From assembly GCA_025774555.1 (NCBI GenBank), contig JALGVT010000003.1:72654-136653 (forward strand): a DNA stretch of 64,000 nucleotides. The letters are read 5' to 3'. Of this stretch, positions 14,111 to 64,000 are shown piece by piece. The translations under genes were made by a program, and so were the position numbers. Origin of the DNA: a candidate division LCP-89 bacterium. GTDB lineage: Bacteria > Electryoneota > B3-LCP. The notes below the pieces were generated by a model, which was not told the origin of the DNA, ran no database searches, and was given only the letters and a program-made list of their open reading frames with translations. Each line of letters begins with the position of its first letter. Position 1 is the stretch's first letter.

Positions 14111-14917
14111 ATGAAAAAGGTTACGACGAAATCTCTTCTGGAGATGAAGGCAAAGGGCGAAAAAATCGCTGTTCTGACTGCCTATGACGCCACTTTTGCC
14201 AGTCTTCAGGATGAGGCAGAAATAGAGGTGATCCTCGTAGGTGATTCAGCGGCAATGGTCATCTGCGGCGAGTCTTCCACGCTGACCGCTACGATGGATC
14301 AGATGGTCTATCACGTGCGATGTGTTTCCGGGGGAGTGAAGCGTGCGCTGCTGGTCGCTGATATGCCCTTCATGTCATTTCAGATTTCCGCTGAAGAGAC
14401 ATTACGCAATGCCGGACGTTTTCTTGCCGAGGCTGGAGCGGAAGCGGTTAAACTGGAAGGCGGCAAGCCGATTCTGGATACGGTCAAGAGACTGGTGGAC
14501 GTCGGCATCCCGGTCATGGGACATCTGGGGTTGACGCCCCAGTCCATCCATCAATTCGGAGGGTGGGGAGTGCGGGCGAGAGAACAAGGGGAAGCGGATA
14601 GACTGCTTGAAGATGCGCTGGCGCTGGAGAAAGCAGGCGTATTCTCAATGGTACTGGAGAAGATTCCAGCTCCCTTAGCTGGTGAAGTCTCGCGTGCGCT
14701 GAAAGTACCCACCATCGGCATCGGTTCTGGAGCAGATTGCGATGGACAGGTGCTGGTCAATTACGATATGCTTGGGTTATATGAAAAGTTCGCCATGAAA
14801 TTCGTGCGCAAATACCGGCTTCTCGGGAAGGAAGTAACCGCTGCCGTAAGAGAGTACATTCAAGATGTAAAAAAGGGAGATTTTCCTTCCAAAGATGAGA
14901 GTTACGATATAAATTAA
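14111..14917 (+). CDS. panB: 3-methyl-2-oxobutanoate hydroxymethyltransferase
   Basis: LTAYDATFASL...VILVGDSAAMV signature. Confidence 0.9.
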   Translation: MKKVTTKSLLEMKAKGEKIAVLTAYDATFASLQDEAEIEVILVGDSAAMVICGESSTLTATMDQMVYHVRCVSGGVKRALLVADMPFMSFQISAEETLRNAGRFLAEAGAEAVKLEGGKPILDTVKRLVDVGIPVMGHLGLTPQSIHQFGGWGVRAREQGEADRLLEDALALEKAGVFSMVLEKIPAPLAGEVSRALKVPTIGIGSGADCDGQVLVNYDMLGLYEKFAMKFVRKYRLLGKEVTAAVREYIQDVKKGDFPSKDESYDIN

Positions 14918-43389: not shown

Positions 43390-43465
<76 letters not shown>

Positions 43466-51694: not shown

Positions 51695-53341
51695 TTATAG
51701 TTGATCGAACTCGCTTGGATCGATCAGAAGGTGGGGTGTGATCAATACGACCACTTCGGTTTTCTCGATTTCGGTAGTAGTATTTCCGAAAAGGTAGCCT
51801 AAAATGGGGATGTCTCCCAGGAAGGGGATGCGGTTTCTCGTCTCTCGCTTGTTTTCGGATACCAGACCACCGATACCAATGGTCTGTCCATTGTCAATCT
51901 GCACCCTGGTCTCCACTGATCTCACGCTGGTTACCGGCAGATCTGTGGCGCCGGATCCAGTGACGTCGCTGACCTCAATCACGATATCTGCCGTGATGTT
52001 GGCTTCACTGCCGACATAAGGCGTGATCATCAGCATGATGCCGGTAGCTATTTTTTCCAGGGTCACATAGCTGTAGGCAGAAGATCCCTGGAGCAGTGAA
52101 TAATAGGCTTCCTTCCCAATGCGAATTGCGGCTTCCTGTCCGTCAGAGGTAGTGATGCGGGGGTTAGCGCGGATGTTTGCCTGATCTTTTATGGCTAATG
52201 CCTGAAGTGCTAAACGCAGATCGAAGACCATACCTTGGTGGTGATCTCCGGTTCTGAACATTTCGCTTAAGAAGAAGGATGTGTCGCTGTAAGAGGGCAG
52301 CAGTTTTGACAGTTTGAACGCATCATTCCCTTTCGTGCCTGACCAATCCCATTCCAAACCGAGCGAACGCCTGGCTTCGTCGCCCATCTCCACGACAAGT
52401 GCTTCTATCAATACCTGCTGAGGGGGGTGGTCAACAGCAGCTAACTCCTCCTTGAAACGGTCGATGATTGCAGGGGGAGCAGATATAACCAGCGTATTGG
52501 TTTTTTCGTTCACCTTAATAAAATTATTATAATAGTCGGGTATGAGTTTAGGAACTTCAGCCGCCGGAAGGTGCTTGGGCTTGACCGCCTCTGTCTGCGC
52601 CAGTAGAGGGAAAGAGGGATTGTCAGCCACCGGCGCGCCGACGATGTAATAGTTTTCAATTTTACGGTAACTATAACCCATCGGCGACAGGATCAGACTG
52701 AGCGCCTGTTCGAGGGGTACGTCGATTATATCAAGCGTTATGTAACCTCTCACCATGGCATCCGGAATGATGGCAATCTCTGTCTGTGCGGAAAGATCCA
52801 TCAGCGCCTGGCGGATATCCGTTTCATAGAAGGAATTGGACACCAGCGGTCCGGAGTGATTTGAATCGGTCATAGAAGGCTCTTCACCGGAATCATTCTC
52901 CTGCCCCTGGAGCTTCTTCAACGCGGCTACACCCTGCTCTGCGCTGCTCTCCCAACTGGCGAGTAGAGGATAATTGGCTTCCACCCGTGGAAAATACTGC
53001 CTCAGCAGGTTGAAGCACCGCGCTGCTTTAACCGGGTCTCCCAGCGCTATATTACACCGCCCCAGCAGATACAGCACTTCGTCCATCCGGTAGTACGATG
53101 GCTCCTGCTGTCCGGTGGATCGCAACAGGTCCGCGGCATCCACGTAATCGCCGGAATCCATCAAGGTGGTGGCTCTCTCGATTATTCCGCTGATACCATC
53201 AGGATATATGCTCTCCATTTCCTGCGGCAGCAGGGGGGGTGACTGCGTGCAAGAAAGGATAAGTAATCCGAGTGATAGCGCGCAACAAACGGGAACCCAT
53301 GAGCGTATAATTTTATAGAAGCGGTTGTAGGGACGTATCAT
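51695..53341 (-). CDS. Secretin (GspD/PilQ family) with N-terminal lipoprotein TPR-like (pilotin-like) region
   Basis: Lipobox LILSCTQS, then a TPR-like segment and secretin N-domain (FYETDIRQALMDLSAQTEIAIIPDAMVRG). C-terminal secretin motif IPFLGDIPILGYLFGNTTTEIEKTEVVVLITPHLL. Confidence 0.8.
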   Translation of the reverse strand: MIRPYNRFYKIIRSWVPVCCALSLGLLILSCTQSPPLLPQEMESIYPDGISGIIERATTLMDSGDYVDAADLLRSTGQQEPSYYRMDEVLYLLGRCNIALGDPVKAARCFNLLRQYFPRVEANYPLLASWESSAEQGVAALKKLQGQENDSGEEPSMTDSNHSGPLVSNSFYETDIRQALMDLSAQTEIAIIPDAMVRGYITLDIIDVPLEQALSLILSPMGYSYRKIENYYIVGAPVADNPSFPLLAQTEAVKPKHLPAAEVPKLIPDYYNNFIKVNEKTNTLVISAPPAIIDRFKEELAAVDHPPQQVLIEALVVEMGDEARRSLGLEWDWSGTKGNDAFKLSKLLPSYSDTSFFLSEMFRTGDHHQGMVFDLRLALQALAIKDQANIRANPRITTSDGQEAAIRIGKEAYYSLLQGSSAYSYVTLEKIATGIMLMITPYVGSEANITADIVIEVSDVTGSGATDLPVTSVRSVETRVQIDNGQTIGIGGLVSENKRETRNRIPFLGDIPILGYLFGNTTTEIEKTEVVVLITPHLLIDPSEFDQL

Positions 53342-53412
53342 ATATCTTCTCGATTTTTATCTACTTCAGACTATGCTCTTTGACATAGTCCCTAAAAACC
53401 CGTTAATGTACT

Positions 53413-55038
53413 CTATTTCAATCCTTTAGGTGTTGTCGTAGTGCTGGTAAAGCTTACTTCGGAGCGCTCCCAGACCGGCTTTTTGCCTAAAGTGACAAAT
53501 TCGGCTTTTACAAGGAAACCACCCTGATCCAATGGCGGCAAGGTCATGCGGAACTCGCGTGAAGATCCCGGCAGAATAATTTCCTCCTGATCTTTGCCCA
53601 GATTCATGAAAGCGATCACCTGTCCATTGGTTCGTTCCAATTGCAATTTGCCCTTGAAGGTCGCGACTTTTCCGCCGCTGTTATAAATTGGCACTACTGC
53701 GGTCGTAGGGTTGGCACCCTCTACGGGGTAAATCAGATTGGGTTTGCTGACCTCCAGCTTTGACGGAGGAGATTTGGGATTCTTGGCTACCAGCAGAACC
53801 CCAAATTCCGCACCGCTCACGCGCCCACCAACTGTCAATGGACCAGTGGCGTTGATGCGTACTGCTTTCACGAATGCGCCAAAACCGGTGGTATCGCGTG
53901 GCACCTTGACCTGAGCTTTGATAGAAGCGGTACGTTTTGATTCTATAGATACAGTTTCCGGGGAGATACTTATCCAATCATTGCTCTCCTGAATCTTTGC
54001 AGGGAATGTAAGGGATCCATCCACTTCCATTTTCACATCGGAGACATAAGCTCGAATTTCAGTGGTACGCTCGTCTCTGTTCTGAATCCTGATGGGAACA
54101 GTGCGCACCGCGCCGGGTGTGAGTGTTAGTTCAACCATTTGGGGATTGACCGACATATCCAGATCGAACTCGGACCTGGTCAGGATTTTACTGGAAACGC
54201 TCTTGCCTGTCAAAGAAGCTGGAACTTCGAATTCCAGATTGCTGACTGAACGTATCGCACCGTTCAAAAGCAAACGTACCTCAGCTCTGTATTTACCAGG
54301 ACTTGGAACTTCCGTGAGAGGACAAATAAGATCAACCTCATAACCAGGATATATTTCAAACGGTTTACCCCCTGGCCTGAAGGGAATTGGAACTTTAGTA
54401 GGAAATATACTTGTAGGTCCATAGAGGAGCATATCCCCAGTAACATCCAATCTCCAAACGCCTGGATTTGAGGCTAAAAGACTTATGCAATAATTATCCT
54501 TTCCTGTCACTGGAACAAGTTTCATATCCTTAACTTCTATATTCGTTTTGCCTCTTCCCAGTACCATCGCCTCAATTTTTATAGAAAGAGCAGGTCGTAC
54601 TAAAACGGCAATATTAGCAGATGGTCGCTCAGGCTGAACCTGTATTATAATATAAGCATAATAGTGACCTGGATTGGCAGTGGGATAGGTTATCGTAATC
54701 GGGATGTCCATTGATCCACCAGCCGGGATTTCTAACTCTTCGGCTACAGATATCCAAGACGCGCAGGATTGATATCCAAGGCCTGCATCTACGACCTGAA
54801 TAGTTCCTTCGTTACTCTGGTTGAGATCCCTGACTTCTATAGTATATCTTGATGTTGCTGTTGTGTTGGTTGCAGCCAATATGAAACTGGAGTTGACTCT
54901 TTGCCCTGGATTGCCTTGCAACTGTATATGTGCAGGACTTATCCCAAATCCTCTACGACTTTCTTCTTGTGTCTGTGCTTCAGAAAGTGAAAGCGCAAAA
55001 AATATGGATGTGAAAATTAGGATAGTACTTTTTACCAT
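53413..55038 (-). CDS. Hypothetical secreted 541-aa beta-rich protein (predicted multiple Ig-like/beta-sandwich repeats)
   Basis: Signal peptide MVKSTILIFTSIFFALSLSEAQTQ; recurring ...ISP...I.L...G...V... strand-like patterns; no catalytic motif. Transcribed just upstream of the secretin gene. Confidence 0.5.
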   Translation of the reverse strand: MVKSTILIFTSIFFALSLSEAQTQEESRRGFGISPAHIQLQGNPGQRVNSSFILAATNTTATSRYTIEVRDLNQSNEGTIQVVDAGLGYQSCASWISVAEELEIPAGGSMDIPITITYPTANPGHYYAYIIIQVQPERPSANIAVLVRPALSIKIEAMVLGRGKTNIEVKDMKLVPVTGKDNYCISLLASNPGVWRLDVTGDMLLYGPTSIFPTKVPIPFRPGGKPFEIYPGYEVDLICPLTEVPSPGKYRAEVRLLLNGAIRSVSNLEFEVPASLTGKSVSSKILTRSEFDLDMSVNPQMVELTLTPGAVRTVPIRIQNRDERTTEIRAYVSDVKMEVDGSLTFPAKIQESNDWISISPETVSIESKRTASIKAQVKVPRDTTGFGAFVKAVRINATGPLTVGGRVSGAEFGVLLVAKNPKSPPSKLEVSKPNLIYPVEGANPTTAVVPIYNSGGKVATFKGKLQLERTNGQVIAFMNLGKDQEEIILPGSSREFRMTLPPLDQGGFLVKAEFVTLGKKPVWERSEVSFTSTTTTPKGLK

Positions 55039-55116
55039 TTGACTTTCCCTTCAATTATAACCATTGTATGCCTGGGAGATAGAAAGCTCCCAGACATACC
55101 TTATTAGGCCAGACCT

Positions 55117-55911
55117 TTAGGGCACACTAAGAGTTACATTAAGATTAGCGGTGTAAACGCCCGCCGGATCAGACATACCATTTCTTTCTACCCTACCATG
55201 GAATGTGAAGGTACCCCTAACATATTGGTTCATTGCTAGAGTGTACGTAGGAGAGCCGGCCATGACCCATGCTTTCTGCGTTGGGAATTCGTTAAAAGGA
55301 TTAACCAGACCTGGCCACACAGCACTGGGAGATTCGAGACCAAAGTCAGTGCCCGCAACATTGGAAAGGTACTGACCGTCATTCCACCCAAACGGGGGTA
55401 CGCCTGCAGTCCAACCACCCATATATGTTGTTCCGTTTGCTATGAAGCCGCCCACATCCCACCACGCTGCTGCTGCAGTGAAGTATGATGGGAGAGTAAA
55501 AGACCCATTAGTAAGATCTCCGGACGGTGTAATTTGAAGGTTCATTCCACCATTGCTGGTTACATAGATATCTGCCCAGTCTCCGGACTCCCAGTACTTT
55601 GCTGATGGGGCTGGAGTCGTGGTGGGATCACCAGACCATGGATCGGTTGCATACGTTTTGAGGCCTGGATCATTGCCACTACTATAAGCGCTGCCCTCAA
55701 TTGCGGTTGTGTTCCACCAGTCATATCCTGGTCCCTGTTCCGGAGCAACTTGACCATTTGGTCCGAAAACGATGTTCATGTCTTGCCACTGGACATCAGA
55801 CCACACCGGTATGTCTAGCGTGACAACTACAGTGCCGGTGTAGGTGATAGGCTGTGCAGACACAATACCTGCAAACGCCAGGACAACAAGAATTATTAGT
55901 GCTTTTCGCAT
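55117..55911 (-). CDS. Hypothetical secreted 264-aa Gly/Trp/Thr-rich protein
   Basis: Signal peptidase I-type signal (AGIVSA|QP); Trp- and Gly-rich (8 Trp, many GxxG); no class III (prepilin) signal. Confidence 0.5.
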   Translation of the reverse strand: MRKALIILVVLAFAGIVSAQPITYTGTVVVTLDIPVWSDVQWQDMNIVFGPNGQVAPEQGPGYDWWNTTAIEGSAYSSGNDPGLKTYATDPWSGDPTTTPAPSAKYWESGDWADIYVTSNGGMNLQITPSGDLTNGSFTLPSYFTAAAAWWDVGGFIANGTTYMGGWTAGVPPFGWNDGQYLSNVAGTDFGLESPSAVWPGLVNPFNEFPTQKAWVMAGSPTYTLAMNQYVRGTFTFHGRVERNGMSDPAGVYTANLNVTLSVP

Positions 55912-56179
55912 TTTCTTCTCCTAAATTTCCGCCCAAGGGTATCTGATCGAGGAATGGGAAGTCGTGTCAAGACCTCTTCCCTGCCGGGGAGGGCGGTGCC
56001 CCCCGGTTCCCCGTCCGGCTTTTTTCTCCGGGGAGCCGGAACCCATTTAGCCGTCGGGCTTATCGCCCGGCGGTTACTCTTTACAAACGCTCAGCTTATT
56101 GCCAGGTCATCACCTCCTTTTTTAGGCTCAAAGCCTTGTTGTTCGGTCGTTATATGAACGTAGTCAATCGAATTGACTA

Positions 56180-56662
56180 TTAATCTCGAGATTCTTCTCC
56201 CTCAATATCAGCGCCTGGCTTCTTATCACGAAGCCGCGCCTTGCCTTTGTTCTCGATTTGTTCCTTAATGGATTGCCTTTGCTGGCATTCTTCCAGCCAT
56301 TCAGCCAACTTTACCAGCTTGATCGGTTTCTTCAGAACCTTATATCCCAGCTCCTCAGCTACCTGTTCGTAATCTTTCAGCCATTCATCGATAATCAGGG
56401 CGATATTGTCGATCTTGAAGCCGCTGTTCAGCAGTAGTTCCGTGAATTCCAATCCGTCCATGATCCGCAGATTCAGCTCACAGATCAAGACGTCCAGGCG
56501 CAAATAATCGTTTGCTTCAGATTCTGGCGGCTTCGCTTTCGGCATCGGATAATATGAGGGATCCTCATAAGGTTCAACCTCATAACCATACACCTCCAGC
56601 ATCTCCACAATCTTGGACCGAACGTGTAAGTTTCTCTCAATAACGCAGGCTTTAGGTTTCAT
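56180..56662 (-). CDS. Single-domain response-regulator receiver-like protein with atypical phosphoacceptor site (Glu in place of Asp) and a charged C-terminal tail
   Basis: Aligns to CheY-like receivers: KACVIERNLHVRSKIVEML..., DVLICELNLRIMDGLEF (CheY DWNMPNMDGLEL, so Asp57 corresponds to Glu), KKPIKL (Lys109 conserved). The usual acidic pair near the N-terminus is ER. Confidence 0.55.
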   Translation of the reverse strand: MKPKACVIERNLHVRSKIVEMLEVYGYEVEPYEDPSYYPMPKAKPPESEANDYLRLDVLICELNLRIMDGLEFTELLLNSGFKIDNIALIIDEWLKDYEQVAEELGYKVLKKPIKLVKLAEWLEECQQRQSIKEQIENKGKARLRDKKPGADIEGEESRD

Positions 56663-56806
56663 GAATGAATCCTACTGCACATTTCCATGATTTTGTTTGC
56701 TATTTTATCAGTGCCATACGCCCACTGGTAGTGAATTGATCTGTAGATAGACGATACAGGTAAATCCCCGAGGCTATATTTCCAGCATCGAATGTAACCT
56801 GGCACT

Positions 56807-57871
56807 TTAATTTCCAGTTATCCCCTGCAAGGATATATTCCCCCGGTAACTGCCGGCTACGTCCGCCATGGTGATATCGATGTTGAAACGGAGAATAATC
56901 TCTTCGTTAGGCCTGCAGTGCCGTGAACCACTCCTGGCTACTTCGTTGCTGCTGCCCAGGTTGCCGCTATCCAGCACGTCGCCAGAGGGGCTGACCTGCG
57001 TCCAATGTATTCTGTCTGCTGGTATCTCACCGCGCTCGCTCGTGAGATTGCTTGTATTCGCCAACACTCTCCACTTGCGCGAATTTGTGATGACCTTAAA
57101 GCGGACTTCCTGCTGTGCCTGATAGGTTCCTTCCGGACCATCACCCTGGAAATCCAACTCCCCACCGCACAAGAAAGCTATCTCCATGATTTCGGGGATT
57201 GTGAGGGCGACATGTACCTGGCCAGGAAGTCCCTGAAAGGGCGTTCCTGCACCCGGTGTTGGTGTGAAGTGTTGACTCGGACTTGGATCAAGACCTTCAC
57301 CTTTACGATTAGAAGAGGTCTTTCTTGCAGAAAATTTTGATGTATGTGTTTTTATTTTTGGCCCTGAAGGCGTCAGAACCAGGGTGCCATGATATTCACC
57401 CGGCGGGTCCTGCCAGGTGGGACGAACTTCTATTGCAATCTCAGTATCCTTAACAGGCATTCCAAGGTTGCCGATCACGACTGGTATGGGTTTGGTTAAA
57501 GGTGTGAAAGCACCGCCGGTCTCTTCAGTTTTTATCCATAAGCGGTCAGGCGGGAGAGCGCCTTCCGGTCCCTCCAGATTAGTTGGGACAATAGTAGCAC
57601 TCCATTCAGGCAGATAGGATTGTACTCTCAGTTTGAGAATGCCGCTGCTGATCCAGGGAGCATGTTCATAACCCCCTTGAGGTCCAAATTCCAAGCGAAC
57701 CTGATCGCTCTCGGGGATGATCTGAATGAAACCATTTTTGAGCACGGGTGACGCGGGAGAAATTTCCTGTCCATACGCGTCATTACGGGTAGCAAGGAGG
57801 AGCGCCAAAATCAACAGCAGCCCGCATATGGTGTAGATCACTAATCTTTTCGTGATCTTGATTCTTTCCAT
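56807..57871 (-). CDS. Hypothetical secreted 354-aa protein
   Basis: N-terminal transmembrane/signal segment (LVIYTICGLLLILALLLATRNDAYGQ); Pro/Gly-rich middle section; no recognisable motif. Confidence 0.5.
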   Translation of the reverse strand: MERIKITKRLVIYTICGLLLILALLLATRNDAYGQEISPASPVLKNGFIQIIPESDQVRLEFGPQGGYEHAPWISSGILKLRVQSYLPEWSATIVPTNLEGPEGALPPDRLWIKTEETGGAFTPLTKPIPVVIGNLGMPVKDTEIAIEVRPTWQDPPGEYHGTLVLTPSGPKIKTHTSKFSARKTSSNRKGEGLDPSPSQHFTPTPGAGTPFQGLPGQVHVALTIPEIMEIAFLCGGELDFQGDGPEGTYQAQQEVRFKVITNSRKWRVLANTSNLTSERGEIPADRIHWTQVSPSGDVLDSGNLGSSNEVARSGSRHCRPNEEIILRFNIDITMADVAGSYRGNISLQGITGN

Positions 57872-58900
57872 GGCTGATTTCCTCCAACCTTTTATGGAGC
57901 AGATGATGGAAAAATACTGTTCTGCAAAATTCTGCGGATTGAATAAGCAGATCCCCGAGAATAAGTCAAGGAATGGTAGTTTTAACTTGATTTCTACAGT
58001 TTAAATTTGTATATTAAAGAGAGTTTGCCCCGTCCCTAATGCTAGGGGTGAATCTCTTGAGCCGGTTTCAGAGGTGCTCCTACACACGCTCTCTTGGAAT
58101 CGGCTCTCCTGTTTTACTCAATTAGATAACGCTTATTAAATATGTTCCTCTACTCACATCCCAATAAGTAGATTTAGAATTAATTCATCCTATACAAGAA
58201 ATCGCCCTGAAAAGAAAAGCCCTCTTGCGAAGTGCAGAAAGATTCCACACTCGAGAGAGGGCAAAGCAATTCTAAGAGTAGCTTTCTAATGACTAACGAA
58301 AACAAACTTTGAGATTTATAAGGCGTAGTTTTAAGATTCATAACAATTTCCTGAAGTAATTCCTTTCACCTGGATATTGAAGCGCCTTACACCCGATATA
58401 TAAAAAAGCAAAAAAGACACAAACGTATCCGCCGAATCAGTGCCACGGATCTGTTTATGCCTTCGACTTACTGGCCCATACGTCCAATCCGACAAGGCGG
58501 CTTGCCCTGAAATATGCAAGCCTTCCCAAAATCAGGGATATACAATATACAAAACTATTTTGGAGAAGTCAAGCATTTTTTTTAAAAACATAAATAATTT
58601 TTCATTTGTCATTATAGGCAGCATTCATAATTCGATAAATTGACATAATATCATGATATTCCCGAACTTCTTCTTGCGAGAATCAAATTCATTTCTTATT
58701 GTTTTACATTCCATTTGAGATTGAACATACAGGACAAGAATAAGACAAAAACCCAGTTGTTTGAAGAAGTCTTATCCAGCGCATGTTAGAGCCTGCACTA
58801 ATCCCTGAAAACAAGACATTTATAAAGGAGCTTTCAACAGAGGTGTTCCTTTTGACCGTGAAGCCAAGTTTATACGTATGAAGGAAGATCACAAACGTAA

Positions 58901-58947
58901 CGGACTCATAATCCGTCGGTCGTAGGTTCGAGTCCTACTGGGCCCAC
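58901..58947 (+). pseudogene. 3' fragment of a tRNA-Met/Ile2 (CAT anticodon) gene: anticodon arm, variable loop, T-arm and 3' acceptor strand only
   Basis: ACGGA-CTCATAA-TCCGT anticodon arm (loop C-U-CAU-A-A), CGGTC variable region, GTAGG-TTCGAGT-CCTAC T-arm, TGGGCCC acceptor 3' strand plus discriminator A. The 26 nt upstream (ACGTATGAAGGAAGATCACAAACGTA) cannot form the matching 5' acceptor strand (GGGCCCA) or a D-arm. Confidence 0.55.
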
Positions 58948-63032: not shown

Positions 63033-64000
63033 CTATTTATGATGCCTGCTATTCCTGCCATCCATATCGGGAAGGGTGATGTTCAGTTTGTGGATTTTTC
63101 GGTAGAGAGTAGTTTTGTGTATGCCCAGTTCTTTTGCGACTGCGGTGCGATTCCAGTTGTTTCGTTCCAGAGCAGTTGTTAAGAACTGCGCTTCCAATTC
63201 TTCCATAGTCTCTGCGGTAGATGCGGAGGCGGTTTTACTGGCTAAGAGTCCATCAGGAAGATGCTGGGCAAGAATGATTCCTCCGCTGCAAAGCACGAAA
63301 GCGTGCTCGAGGACGTTCTCCAGTTCCCTTATATTCCCGGGATAATCATGGTTCATTACAATTTTTAGCACATCAGGGGAGACGCCGTTGATATCCTTGC
63401 CATGAATCTGGTTGAGTTTTCCAATGAAATGTTCAATCAAGAGTGGAATATCCTCCTTACGGTCACGCAAAGGCGGCAGTATCATATGGATAATATTGAT
63501 TCTGTAAAATAAATCGCGCCGAAATGATCCTTTCTCCACAAGCTCGGCGAGATTCTGGTTTGTGGCGGCTATTATGCGCACGTCAACTTTAACAGTTTCC
63601 ACGTCGCCTAAAGGTTCGAAAGTTCTTTCCTGTAATACGCGTAACAGCCGAACTTGTAGGGCGGAAGAAACGTCTCCTATCTCATCCAAGAATAAGGTCC
63701 CGCCGTCAGCTAATTGGAAGCGTCCCGGTTTGTCTTTCCTGGCGTCGGTAAAAGCGCCTGCTTTATAGCCAAACAGTTCGGATTCGAGAAGCGTGTCTGG
63801 AAGAGCGCCGCAATTTACTGTAATCAGCCGTTTATTTTTTCGAGAGCTTAGATTGTGGATAGCTCGAGCGATCAGCTCTTTGCCCGTTCCACTTTCTCCT
63901 TCAATTAAAACAGTACTATCACTGAGGGATATTGTAGGCAGAATCTCGAATATTTTCTGCATTGCAGGGCTTTTACTGACGATGTCCTCAAATGAGTAGC
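63033..64000 (-). CDS. Sigma-54-dependent transcriptional activator (AAA+ sigma-54 interaction domain plus Fis-type helix-turn-helix), 5'-partial at the window edge
   Basis: GESGTGKE Walker A, ESELFGY, GAFTDA, and C-terminal TAVAKELGIHKTTLYRKI. The frame continues upstream past 63962 (...YSFEDIVSKSPAMQKIFEIL...) to the window end. Confidence 0.85.
   Translation of the reverse strand, partial: YSFEDIVSKSPAMQKIFEILPTISLSDSTVLIEGESGTGKELIARAIHNLSSRKNKRLITVNCGALPDTLLESELFGYKAGAFTDARKDKPGRFQLADGGTLFLDEIGDVSSALQVRLLRVLQERTFEPLGDVETVKVDVRIIAATNQNLAELVEKGSFRRDLFYRINIIHMILPPLRDRKEDIPLLIEHFIGKLNQIHGKDINGVSPDVLKIVMNHDYPGNIRELENVLEHAFVLCSGGIILAQHLPDGLLASKTASASTAETMEELEAQFLTTALERNNWNRTAVAKELGIHKTTLYRKIHKLNITLPDMDGRNSRHHK

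Follow-up and report, generated by a model that had tools for sequence, protein, structure and literature searches.

What does a secretin do where none of the machinery that drives secretins is encoded beside it? The question is raised by a 64-kb stretch of DNA from a candidate division LCP-89 bacterium (contig JALGVT010000003.1, positions 72,654 to 136,653), which we refer to as the window, and in which a secretin gene lies downstream of co-oriented genes for three proteins with Sec signal peptides, here named A, B and C, and for a receiver-like protein. To our knowledge, every secretin studied so far forms the outer-membrane (OM) end of a machine that is driven from the inner membrane, as in the type II secretion system (T2SS), type IV pili (T4P), the Tad system, the type III secretion system and filamentous-phage export. 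The original prediction described these five open reading frames, all of which were found on the minus strand at the coordinates given for them (Table 1), and took them for one functional block. This description suits A, B, C and the secretin, which constitute a four-gene cassette with conserved synteny in about ten independent metagenomic loci; it does not suit the receiver-like gene, which has no homologue in the other cassette loci and is found in the window only. We tentatively propose that the cassette assembles a protein complex for the cell surface and that a minimal secretin of its own serves as the exit.

The cassette is part of a run of eight minus-strand genes (57871-43631) in the order A, receiver-like gene, B, C, secretin and the genes for proteins of 1208, 706 and 673 aa, with short gaps in the core: 78 bp separate B from C, 71 bp C from the secretin and 28 bp the secretin from the 1208-aa gene. 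Judged by eye from the sequence, the N-termini of A, B and C each display a basic n-region followed by a hydrophobic core and a cleavage site that resembles AxA/AxG. Across the related loci the four proteins are 25-65% identical to those of the window (A 25-47%, B 27-32%, C 36-45%, secretin 32-65%), A orthologues lie upstream of B-C in all of them, and every sufficiently long contig that carries the B and C families has the order A-B-C and a secretin gene as well. We use W for the secretin and cassette of this window and L-numbers for the related metagenomic loci. The four genes are contiguous in L005, L009 (a Candidatus Zixiibacteriota metagenome-assembled genome), L014, L016 and L019, and a giant glycosidase-like gene stands between C and the secretin in L008 and L011. 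An A-B-C-B'-C' array with a 994-aa gene faces a convergent pair of a DUF5060 giant and a secretin in L001/L013; L012 has the same array with a DUF5060 giant, and its contig ends before any secretin is reached. The genes that flank the cassette are wholly different from locus to locus (gyrase, PGK, peptidase S9, ankyrin, RiPP genes, PAS and two-component regulators) and include no T2SS or T4P component. The recurrence of the set in so many independent loci argues that the adjacency of the four genes is not due to chance.

The C family is very rare and comprises seven clusters among 5.8 billion proteins and the B family 63 representatives among 1.84 billion. A single-sequence search with B found B alone, and the wider B family came from a profile of homologues taken from the loci; scans for relatives of C with four-sequence alignments gave three and two loci. 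Literature searches found nothing relevant on secretins linked to DUF916/WxLIP-type proteins, on orphan secretins or on secretion systems of Zixibacteria. Within the cassette, B and C appear to be partners: L001 and L012 each have a joint duplication of the two, and their subtypes fall into the same two groups across 12 pairs, with pairwise identities that correlate at a Spearman rho of 0.60, a nominal value from pairs that are not independent. The identities of B do not follow those of the secretin; the identities of A do so with a rho of 0.63, a figure that is suggestive only, as it comes from 28 pairs that are likewise not independent.

The secretin and its missing motor

Membership of the secretin superfamily is clear from the Pfam match to PF00263 at residues 382-539 (143.7 bits against a cutoff of 27.5, E=5.5e-42). 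Ahead of this domain Pfam places a single STN/N0 domain (196-236) and a single Secretin_N or N1 domain (251-309), with no N2/N3 array and no AMIN domain among the matches, and before these, separated by a linker, lies a tetratricopeptide repeat (TPR) region (~55-119; TPR_19 at residues 60-119, 27.3 bits against a cutoff of 25). Cys31 follows the signal sequence in a lipobox-like LLILSC. The protein scores 200.9 bits with the NCBIfam GspD model TIGR02517 (cutoff 351.35) and 186.2 bits with the PilQ model TIGR02515 (cutoff 284.35), and is below every NCBIfam equivalog cutoff. Its sequence matches 22 PDB secretins at E<1e-5, 7ofh among them, with GspD and PilQ about equal near 110 bits. It shares its C-domain, N0 and N1 with GspD and PilQ, which work with pilotins (PilF/PilW/Tgl, GspS), and differs from them in its sub-cutoff scores and in having no N2/N3 array, AMIN domain or S-domain. 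In the relatives the N0-N1-secretin architecture is compact, at 423-473 aa.

Three forms of the secretin occur among the loci: lipidated with a TPR region (W and L005, with the lipobox-like motifs LILSC and FLSC), lipidated with a linker (L009, IISC) and short without a lipobox (L008, L011, L014 and L016). Three of the four short forms, that of L016 being the exception, are followed immediately by a gene for a lipoprotein of 118-132 aa, and no such gene comes next after the secretins with a lipobox of their own. The small lipoproteins are homologous to one another, have an L[AI]GC or TAGC lipobox and match no Pfam family (Table 1); one of the copies in L011 is fused to CarboxypepD_reg and CBM96 domains. 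We regard them as a candidate new pilotin family. The alternation of an own lipid anchor with a neighbouring lipoprotein is the pattern expected if targeting to the OM comes from either source, and it is in keeping with the original suggestion that the lipidated TPR N-terminus of the secretin is pilotin-like. The lipidation and TPR region recall both the TPR pilotins and the self-piloting lipidated secretins, and a further likeness to the systems with pilotins is the separate small lipoprotein encoded directly after the secretin in relatives.

The search for a motor covered this window and the flanks of the ~ten related loci, up to 10 kb on each side as far as the contigs permitted. The window's non-spurious open reading frames of 150 aa or more were all scanned against Pfam, and none matches a GspE/PilB/TadA ATPase, a platform protein, an alignment-complex protein, a prepilin peptidase or a pilin, nor do any match PapD_N, PapD_C or Usher (PF00577). 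A regular-expression scan for GspE-type Walker A motifs and prepilin N-termini found nothing in the window or in any fetched locus, and neither the window nor the flanks contain gspC-M, pilM-P or pseudopilin genes. The cassette differs from T2SS and T4aP in this respect, as GspC-M/E/F, PilM-P/B/C, pseudopilin and prepilin peptidase genes are missing from all of these regions. The absence of type II, type IV and Tad machinery that the original prediction had claimed for the window is thereby borne out and extends to the flanks of the related loci. With no inner-membrane motor encoded here, the energy must come from another place or the mechanism is without precedent.

Proteins C, B and A

The original prediction had considered usher, chaperone and immunoglobulin (Ig)-like folds for protein C, and the AlphaFold2 (AF2) model, with a pLDDT of 84.3, shows four Ig-like beta-sandwiches for which WxLIP is the closest known structure by target TM-score. 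The N-terminal half aligns with the C-terminal half (hhalign, 96.3% probability, E=1.8e-9), and C is made of two tandem copies of a unit of two domains that resembles WxLIP (DUF916/DUF3324). In Foldseek it matches the E. faecium WxLIP structure 9i1y_A with E=3.8e-10 and a target TM-score of 0.47 over 265 columns, and 9i25_C with a target TM-score of 0.48, the highest values among its top 50 matches; the rmsd of ~7.6 A indicates that the domains are alike and their relative orientation different. The longest Foldseek matches are eukaryotic ciliary central-apparatus proteins, which we take to be multi-ASH/PapD-like Ig arrays. PF06030 (WxLIP_PGBD, DUF916) is matched weakly by all seven C members (best E=2.9e-7), the window protein reaching 25.2 bits against a gathering cutoff of 27.3 (E=1.7e-5), and a C profile found nothing significant among PDB sequences. 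C is basic, with an isoelectric point (pI) of 8.8, and ends in ...SFTSTTTTPKGLK, with no hydrophobic segment, as do its homologues, so that the C-terminal transmembrane helix of WxLIP proteins is absent.

Protein B has an unusual composition, with 4.9% Trp, 11.7% Gly and a pI of 4.1. Its family of 58 members has no consistent Pfam match, and the family profile no significant match to PDB sequences. The AF2 model shows a beta core with two long low-confidence loops and gives only weak, jelly-roll-type Foldseek matches (E>1e-3); with a pLDDT of 56 it is too poor for a fold to be assigned. The proposal that B is the subunit of a surface fibre finds nothing in its favour here; the poor model looks jelly-roll-like and not pilin-like.

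Protein A consists of two domains that align with one another (hhalign, 97.7% probability, E=1.9e-12), pointing to an internal duplication, and each domain carries a W-x-V segment and the C-terminal motif PpGxYxGxlxL. None of the nine A members matches Pfam, and the sole match of the family profile in the PDB, a marginal one, is the CFA/I pilin CfaB (4y2o_B, E=0.033); from these sequence features we propose that A is built of tandem pilin-like beta domains. A and B have a common N-terminal strand motif, IxVxLxIP. A relationship of the two as paralogues was considered and rejected as unproven, since the hhalign match covers only 26-29 columns at this N-terminal strand with 35-39% probability. 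The profile searches that had been suggested for the secreted proteins therefore place neither A nor B in a Pfam family and give a weak PF06030 match for C. A search for the WxL domain found it in none of the 58 B-family and none of the nine A-family proteins at E<=1 (Pfam-A, in which the WxL model is assumed to be present), and neither A nor B has the double Trp-x-Leu motif.

How the cassette might work

The closest parallel to the A-B-C set is found in Gram-positive bacteria, where a WxL/Csc cluster combines a WxLIP protein (CscA; DUF916 and DUF3324) with two WxL proteins, one short and one long, the same count of one plus two. These clusters have been proposed to form surface complexes for the use of plant polysaccharides (PMC1534035). 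Like their products, A, B and C are Sec-exported and all-beta, C has WxLIP-type Ig domains, and the genes lie near those of carbohydrate-active enzymes. Unlike WxLIP, C has two WxLIP-like units and no C-terminal membrane helix, and the cassette differs further from the Csc clusters in its lack of WxL domains, of an LPXTG protein (CscD) and of a peptidoglycan-surface setting, and in the presence of an OM secretin in a host with two membranes. Since A and B fail the search for WxL domains, C stays below the family threshold and the anchor is missing, we treat the likeness as a functional analogy and not as family membership.

The hosts of the cassette are uncultivated Zixibacteria-like bacteria of the FCB group with two membranes. 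In such a cell A, B and C would cross the inner membrane via Sec, and the basic, four-Ig C would bind and stabilize the acidic B in the periplasm, probably by adding a beta-strand to it as WxLIP does to WxL. A, the tandem pilin-like Ig protein, would join this complex or link it to the channel. The secretin would reach the OM by means of its own lipidated TPR N-terminus, or in the relatives by means of the adjacent small lipoprotein, and the folded complex would then leave through it to the surface; that A, B and C are its substrates is a point that we infer. On the surface the complex may bind or degrade polysaccharide together with the glycosidase-like proteins encoded next to the cassette, of which two carry sorting domains of the type IX secretion system (T9SS). 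The whole would be the equivalent, in bacteria that possess an OM, of the complexes that Csc/WxL proteins form on the surface of Gram-positive cells.

We favour this model, in which C binds B before export through the secretin, if with rather low confidence, because it accounts for the one-plus-two layout, the WxLIP-like C, the glycosidase neighbourhood, the dedicated secretin and the two-membrane host. The cassette is kept at 25-65% identity though its flanks differ completely, and no GspE/PilB-type ATPase, platform protein or prepilin is encoded in the window or in any related locus. The co-duplication of B and C, their matching subtypes and their opposite charges (pI 4.1 and 8.8) are consistent with a direct partnership, and the match of the C model to solved WxLIP structures, with weak PF06030 matches in seven of seven members, suggests a WxLIP-like role for C. 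By analogy, the polysaccharide function proposed for the Csc/WxL clusters is paralleled by the GH5 and DUF5060 giants beside the cassette in six of the ~ten locus types, and the exchange of a lipobox/TPR secretin for a short secretin with a small lipoprotein resembles the way pilotin arrangements alternate. Other observations weigh against the model. Known secretins all use an inner-membrane machine powered by ATP or the proton-motive force, and none is encoded here; C falls just under the PF06030 cutoff, lacks the WxLIP membrane helix and has no DUF3324 sequence match; A and B match neither a WxL model nor any other Pfam family, and the model of B is poor; and the glycosidase neighbours are absent from L009, L014, L016 and L019.

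The main rival explanation, which we consider possible if somewhat doubtful, places the motor elsewhere in the genome: an accessory secretin with its own cargo would dock on the platform of a T2SS, or possibly of T4P, and A, B and C would be T2SS substrates or surface-retained exoproteins pushed out by the pseudopilus. XqhA and HxcQ of Pseudomonas, which are orphan or alternative secretins, offer a precedent for such an accessory role. It is well established that all known secretins need an inner-membrane motor, and the secretin core, which scores equally well against GspD and PilQ, retains N0, the part that binds GspC or PilP; the three proteins have Sec signal peptides, as T2SS substrates do, and our view extends to at most 10 kb on each side of every locus. 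However, the genomes behind the ~ten loci are divergent and in none of the loci is a T2SS or T4P gene linked to the cassette, the secretin has N0 and N1 only in place of the N0-N3 of GspD and stays under all equivalog cutoffs, and the strict co-inheritance of the three proteins and the co-duplication of B and C resemble the behaviour of the parts of a machine or complex more than that of freely exchangeable cargo.

At the other extreme, the cassette could be a complete and undescribed export or assembly route, a 'chaperone-secretin' pathway made up of a minimal secretin and periplasmic Ig-fold proteins, with C as strand-donating chaperone or scaffold, A and B as its clients and no inner-membrane ATPase or pseudopilus. 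We think this unlikely; if true, it would place a complex or fibre of WxL type on the surface of two-membrane bacteria and would connect the WxL/Csc complexes of Gram-positive bacteria with an ancestral form from cells that possess an OM. A cassette that borrows its motor would show how modular secretin systems can be, and one that works without a motor would reveal a new principle for the passage of folded proteins across the OM.

Also unlikely is a chaperone-usher-like fibre pathway that needs no ATPase and in which the secretin replaces the usher: C, as a periplasmic chaperone of Ig fold, would complete the unfinished folds of A and/or B with a donated strand, the subunits would polymerize by strand exchange at the secretin, and the energy of folding would drive the fibre out. 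Chaperone-usher pili (class 5 CFA/I, archaic Csu) are similarly Sec-dependent, and the cassette would share with them the independence from an ATPase, none being encoded nearby, and the combination of a multi-Ig periplasmic protein with small beta-sandwich proteins that have a pilin-like C-terminal strand. The Ig domains of C are WxLIP-like, and ASH-domain proteins, whose domains have the PapD-like Ig fold, top its Foldseek list; however, C has four domains with no recognizable PapD motifs, no usher (PF00577) or PapD-family match was obtained in Pfam, and the OM component is a secretin. The weak match of the A profile to the chaperone-usher pilin CfaB, together with the pilin-typical strand (aGxYxGxlxl) that ends each A domain, is offset by the marginal score of that match (E=0.033) and the absence of any Pfam pilin-family match. 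The strand motif common to A and B and the poor folding of B on its own in the AF2 model would both fit subunits awaiting a donated strand, and the identities of A follow those of the secretin (rho 0.63), though this correlation is drawn from 28 non-independent pairs. No known secretin supports polymerization by strand exchange.

A third alternative, for which we see very little likelihood, makes A, B and C a periplasmic or OM adaptor and the secretin either the exit pore for the 1208-aa glycosidase or the entry pore for large glycan fragments. A gap of 28 bp separates the glycosidase gene from the secretin gene ahead of it, the glycosidase lacks the T9SS tail of the L005 orthologue, and genes of the two kinds lie side by side in W, L001, L005, L008 and L011. 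Against this, L009, L014, L016 and L019 have the cassette without a glycosidase, several of the giants for which Pfam data are available carry T9SS domains (among them the 1502-aa protein of L005 and two of the three neighbours here) and thus have another export route, and glycan import is not known for any secretin. Close to refuted, finally, is the reading of the secretin as the remnant of a filamentous phage or mobile element with unrelated passengers for neighbours. In its favour, the relatives' secretins of 423-473 aa equal phage pIV in compactness and have the layout of such minimal secretins, with N0, a single N domain and the secretin domain; the PDB matches include 7ofh, and a truncated tRNA and a deleted-gene relic adjoin the block. 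Against it, neither the window nor any related locus contains phage, integrase or Zot-like genes, the cassette has no assembly ATPase (pI/Zot) or coat genes, its B and C families are absent from IMG/VR viral contigs and the same three chromosomal neighbours are conserved in many genomes.

The cassette gives a first hint of two-membrane relatives for WxLIP-type proteins, which are known only from the cell walls of Firmicutes, and it would connect an uncharacterized surface module with the means by which Zixibacteria-like bacteria of sediments degrade polysaccharide.

Neighbouring genes and other features

Glycosidase-like giants adjoin the cassette in six of the ~ten locus types, as a GH5_mannosidase type in W, L005 and L011 and as a DUF5060 type in L001, L008 and L012, and there are none at L009, L014, L016 and L019. 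The 1208-aa protein of the window is 73.6% identical over 812 aa to the 1502-aa protein of L005, which matches PF26410 (GH5_mannosidase) and Por_Secre_tail; it is a recurrent neighbour and not a core component. T9SS sorting domains are present in several of these proteins, among them the 1502-aa protein and two of the three window neighbours, those of 706 and 673 aa (Table 1), and because proteins with such tails have an export route of their own they are unlikely cargo for the secretin.

Table 1. Positions of the cassette genes and their neighbours in the window, and of the small lipoprotein genes in related loci.
Feature	Position	Strand	Description
Gene A	57871-56807	minus	354 aa; Sec signal peptide and two homologous beta-sandwich domains
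Degenerate receiver-like gene	56662-56180	minus	160 aa
Gene B	55911-55117	minus	264 aa; Sec signal peptide; acidic orphan family
Gene C	55038-53413	minus	541 aa; Sec signal peptide; four Ig-like domains
Secretin	53341-51695	minus	548 aa; lipobox, TPR, N0, N1, secretin domain
GH5-mannosidase-like protein	51666-48040	minus	1208 aa; without T9SS tail
Protein with T9SS sorting domain	47967-45847	minus	706 aa; Por_Secre_tail E=3.5e-8 (Pfam)
Protein with T9SS sorting domain	45652-43631	minus	673 aa; Por_Secre_tail E=3.1e-9 (Pfam)
Small lipoprotein family	L008 15182-15547; L014 13860-14216; L011 14122-15300 and 15334-15732		assigned by sequence homology

The single 1502-aa gene of L005 (13556-18064), with its GH5 region and T9SS tail, corresponds to two genes in the window. 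The 1208-aa protein keeps the GH5 region and a module of ~330 aa, and the 706-aa protein, which starts with a separate signal peptide, combines the T9SS tail with a copy of the module that is 45.5% identical to residues 806-1139 of the 1208-aa protein; from the sequences the pair looks like the product of duplication or fission of a modular enzyme. The 673-aa protein is 51% identical to a 1033-aa protein of L001. It contains twice a domain of ~130 aa (...YYPDPWPG...LGSG...GDLP) that has no Pfam match and that also forms a stand-alone 184-aa protein beside the L014 cassette (14296-14850), matching residues 431-566 of the 673-aa protein. A separate module of ~220 aa at residues 207-424 of the 673-aa protein also occurs in the DUF5060 giants of L001 (17440-20541) and L008 (8924-13780).

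The receiver-like protein scores 23 bits with the Pfam Response_reg model and so remains below its cutoff of 30.2. Aligned with CheY, it has Glu62 at the position of the phospho-acceptor Asp57 and Lys112 at that of Lys109, and it has ER where the acidic DD pocket is expected. Its gene, unique to the window, sits beside an out-of-frame relic on the minus strand (56718-56813). The relic occupies the interval that separates A from the receiver-like gene and reads VTFDAGNIASGIYLYRLSTDQFTTSGRMALIK up to a stop. It corresponds to the last ~32 residues of a T9SS C-terminal sorting domain and has no open reading frame upstream; a T9SS cargo gene has probably been deleted here.

On the other side of A, on the plus strand (58874-58938), lies a truncated tRNA (Rfam, 29.7 bits; no call by ARAGORN) with an anticodon arm (CAT), a T arm and a 3' acceptor strand and without its 5' half, which may be an old integration scar. 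A genomic island bounded by tRNAs was considered and rejected, as this fragment and the tRNA-Pro at 43390-43464 have no common repeat and no integrase is found nearby.

Signal-transduction genes adjoin the cassette in L005 (4213-6999), L009 (12257-16994) and L008 (2747-3790), and include a PAS-rich response-regulator hybrid, a PAS histidine kinase with a PAS-LuxR response regulator, and a sigma-54 activator. As they recur beside the cassette, they suggest that it is regulated by environmental signals. Large glycosyltransferases of the PMT_2/PMT family (protein O-mannosyltransferase-like or ArnT-like) are encoded a few kb from the cassette in the unrelated loci L001 (5160-7406) and L008 (15598-18801), one of them with TPR repeats, which makes glycosylation of cassette proteins or of envelope components conceivable.

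The remaining genes of the window have envelope and housekeeping functions (BamA, TamB-like, Skp, LpxD, LpxC-FabZ, LpxA, Dxr, RseP, ArgRS, PanBC, UppS and glycosyltransferases), belong to an Fe-S / Nitro_FeMo-Co operon or encode a sigma-54 activator. Control of the cassette by sigma-54 was examined and rejected, as neither A nor B is preceded by a -24/-12 match. A near-consensus sigma-54 -24/-12 element, CGGCACGATGATTGCA, lies at 62888-62873 on the minus strand, upstream of the Fe-S operon, which encodes Nitro_FeMo-Co-domain proteins, DUF5320 and CbiA/MinD-type ATPases with 4Fe-4S domains; the adjoining sigma-54 activator gene (63033-63962) is cut by the end of the window. This operon is a separate system, unrelated to the cassette.

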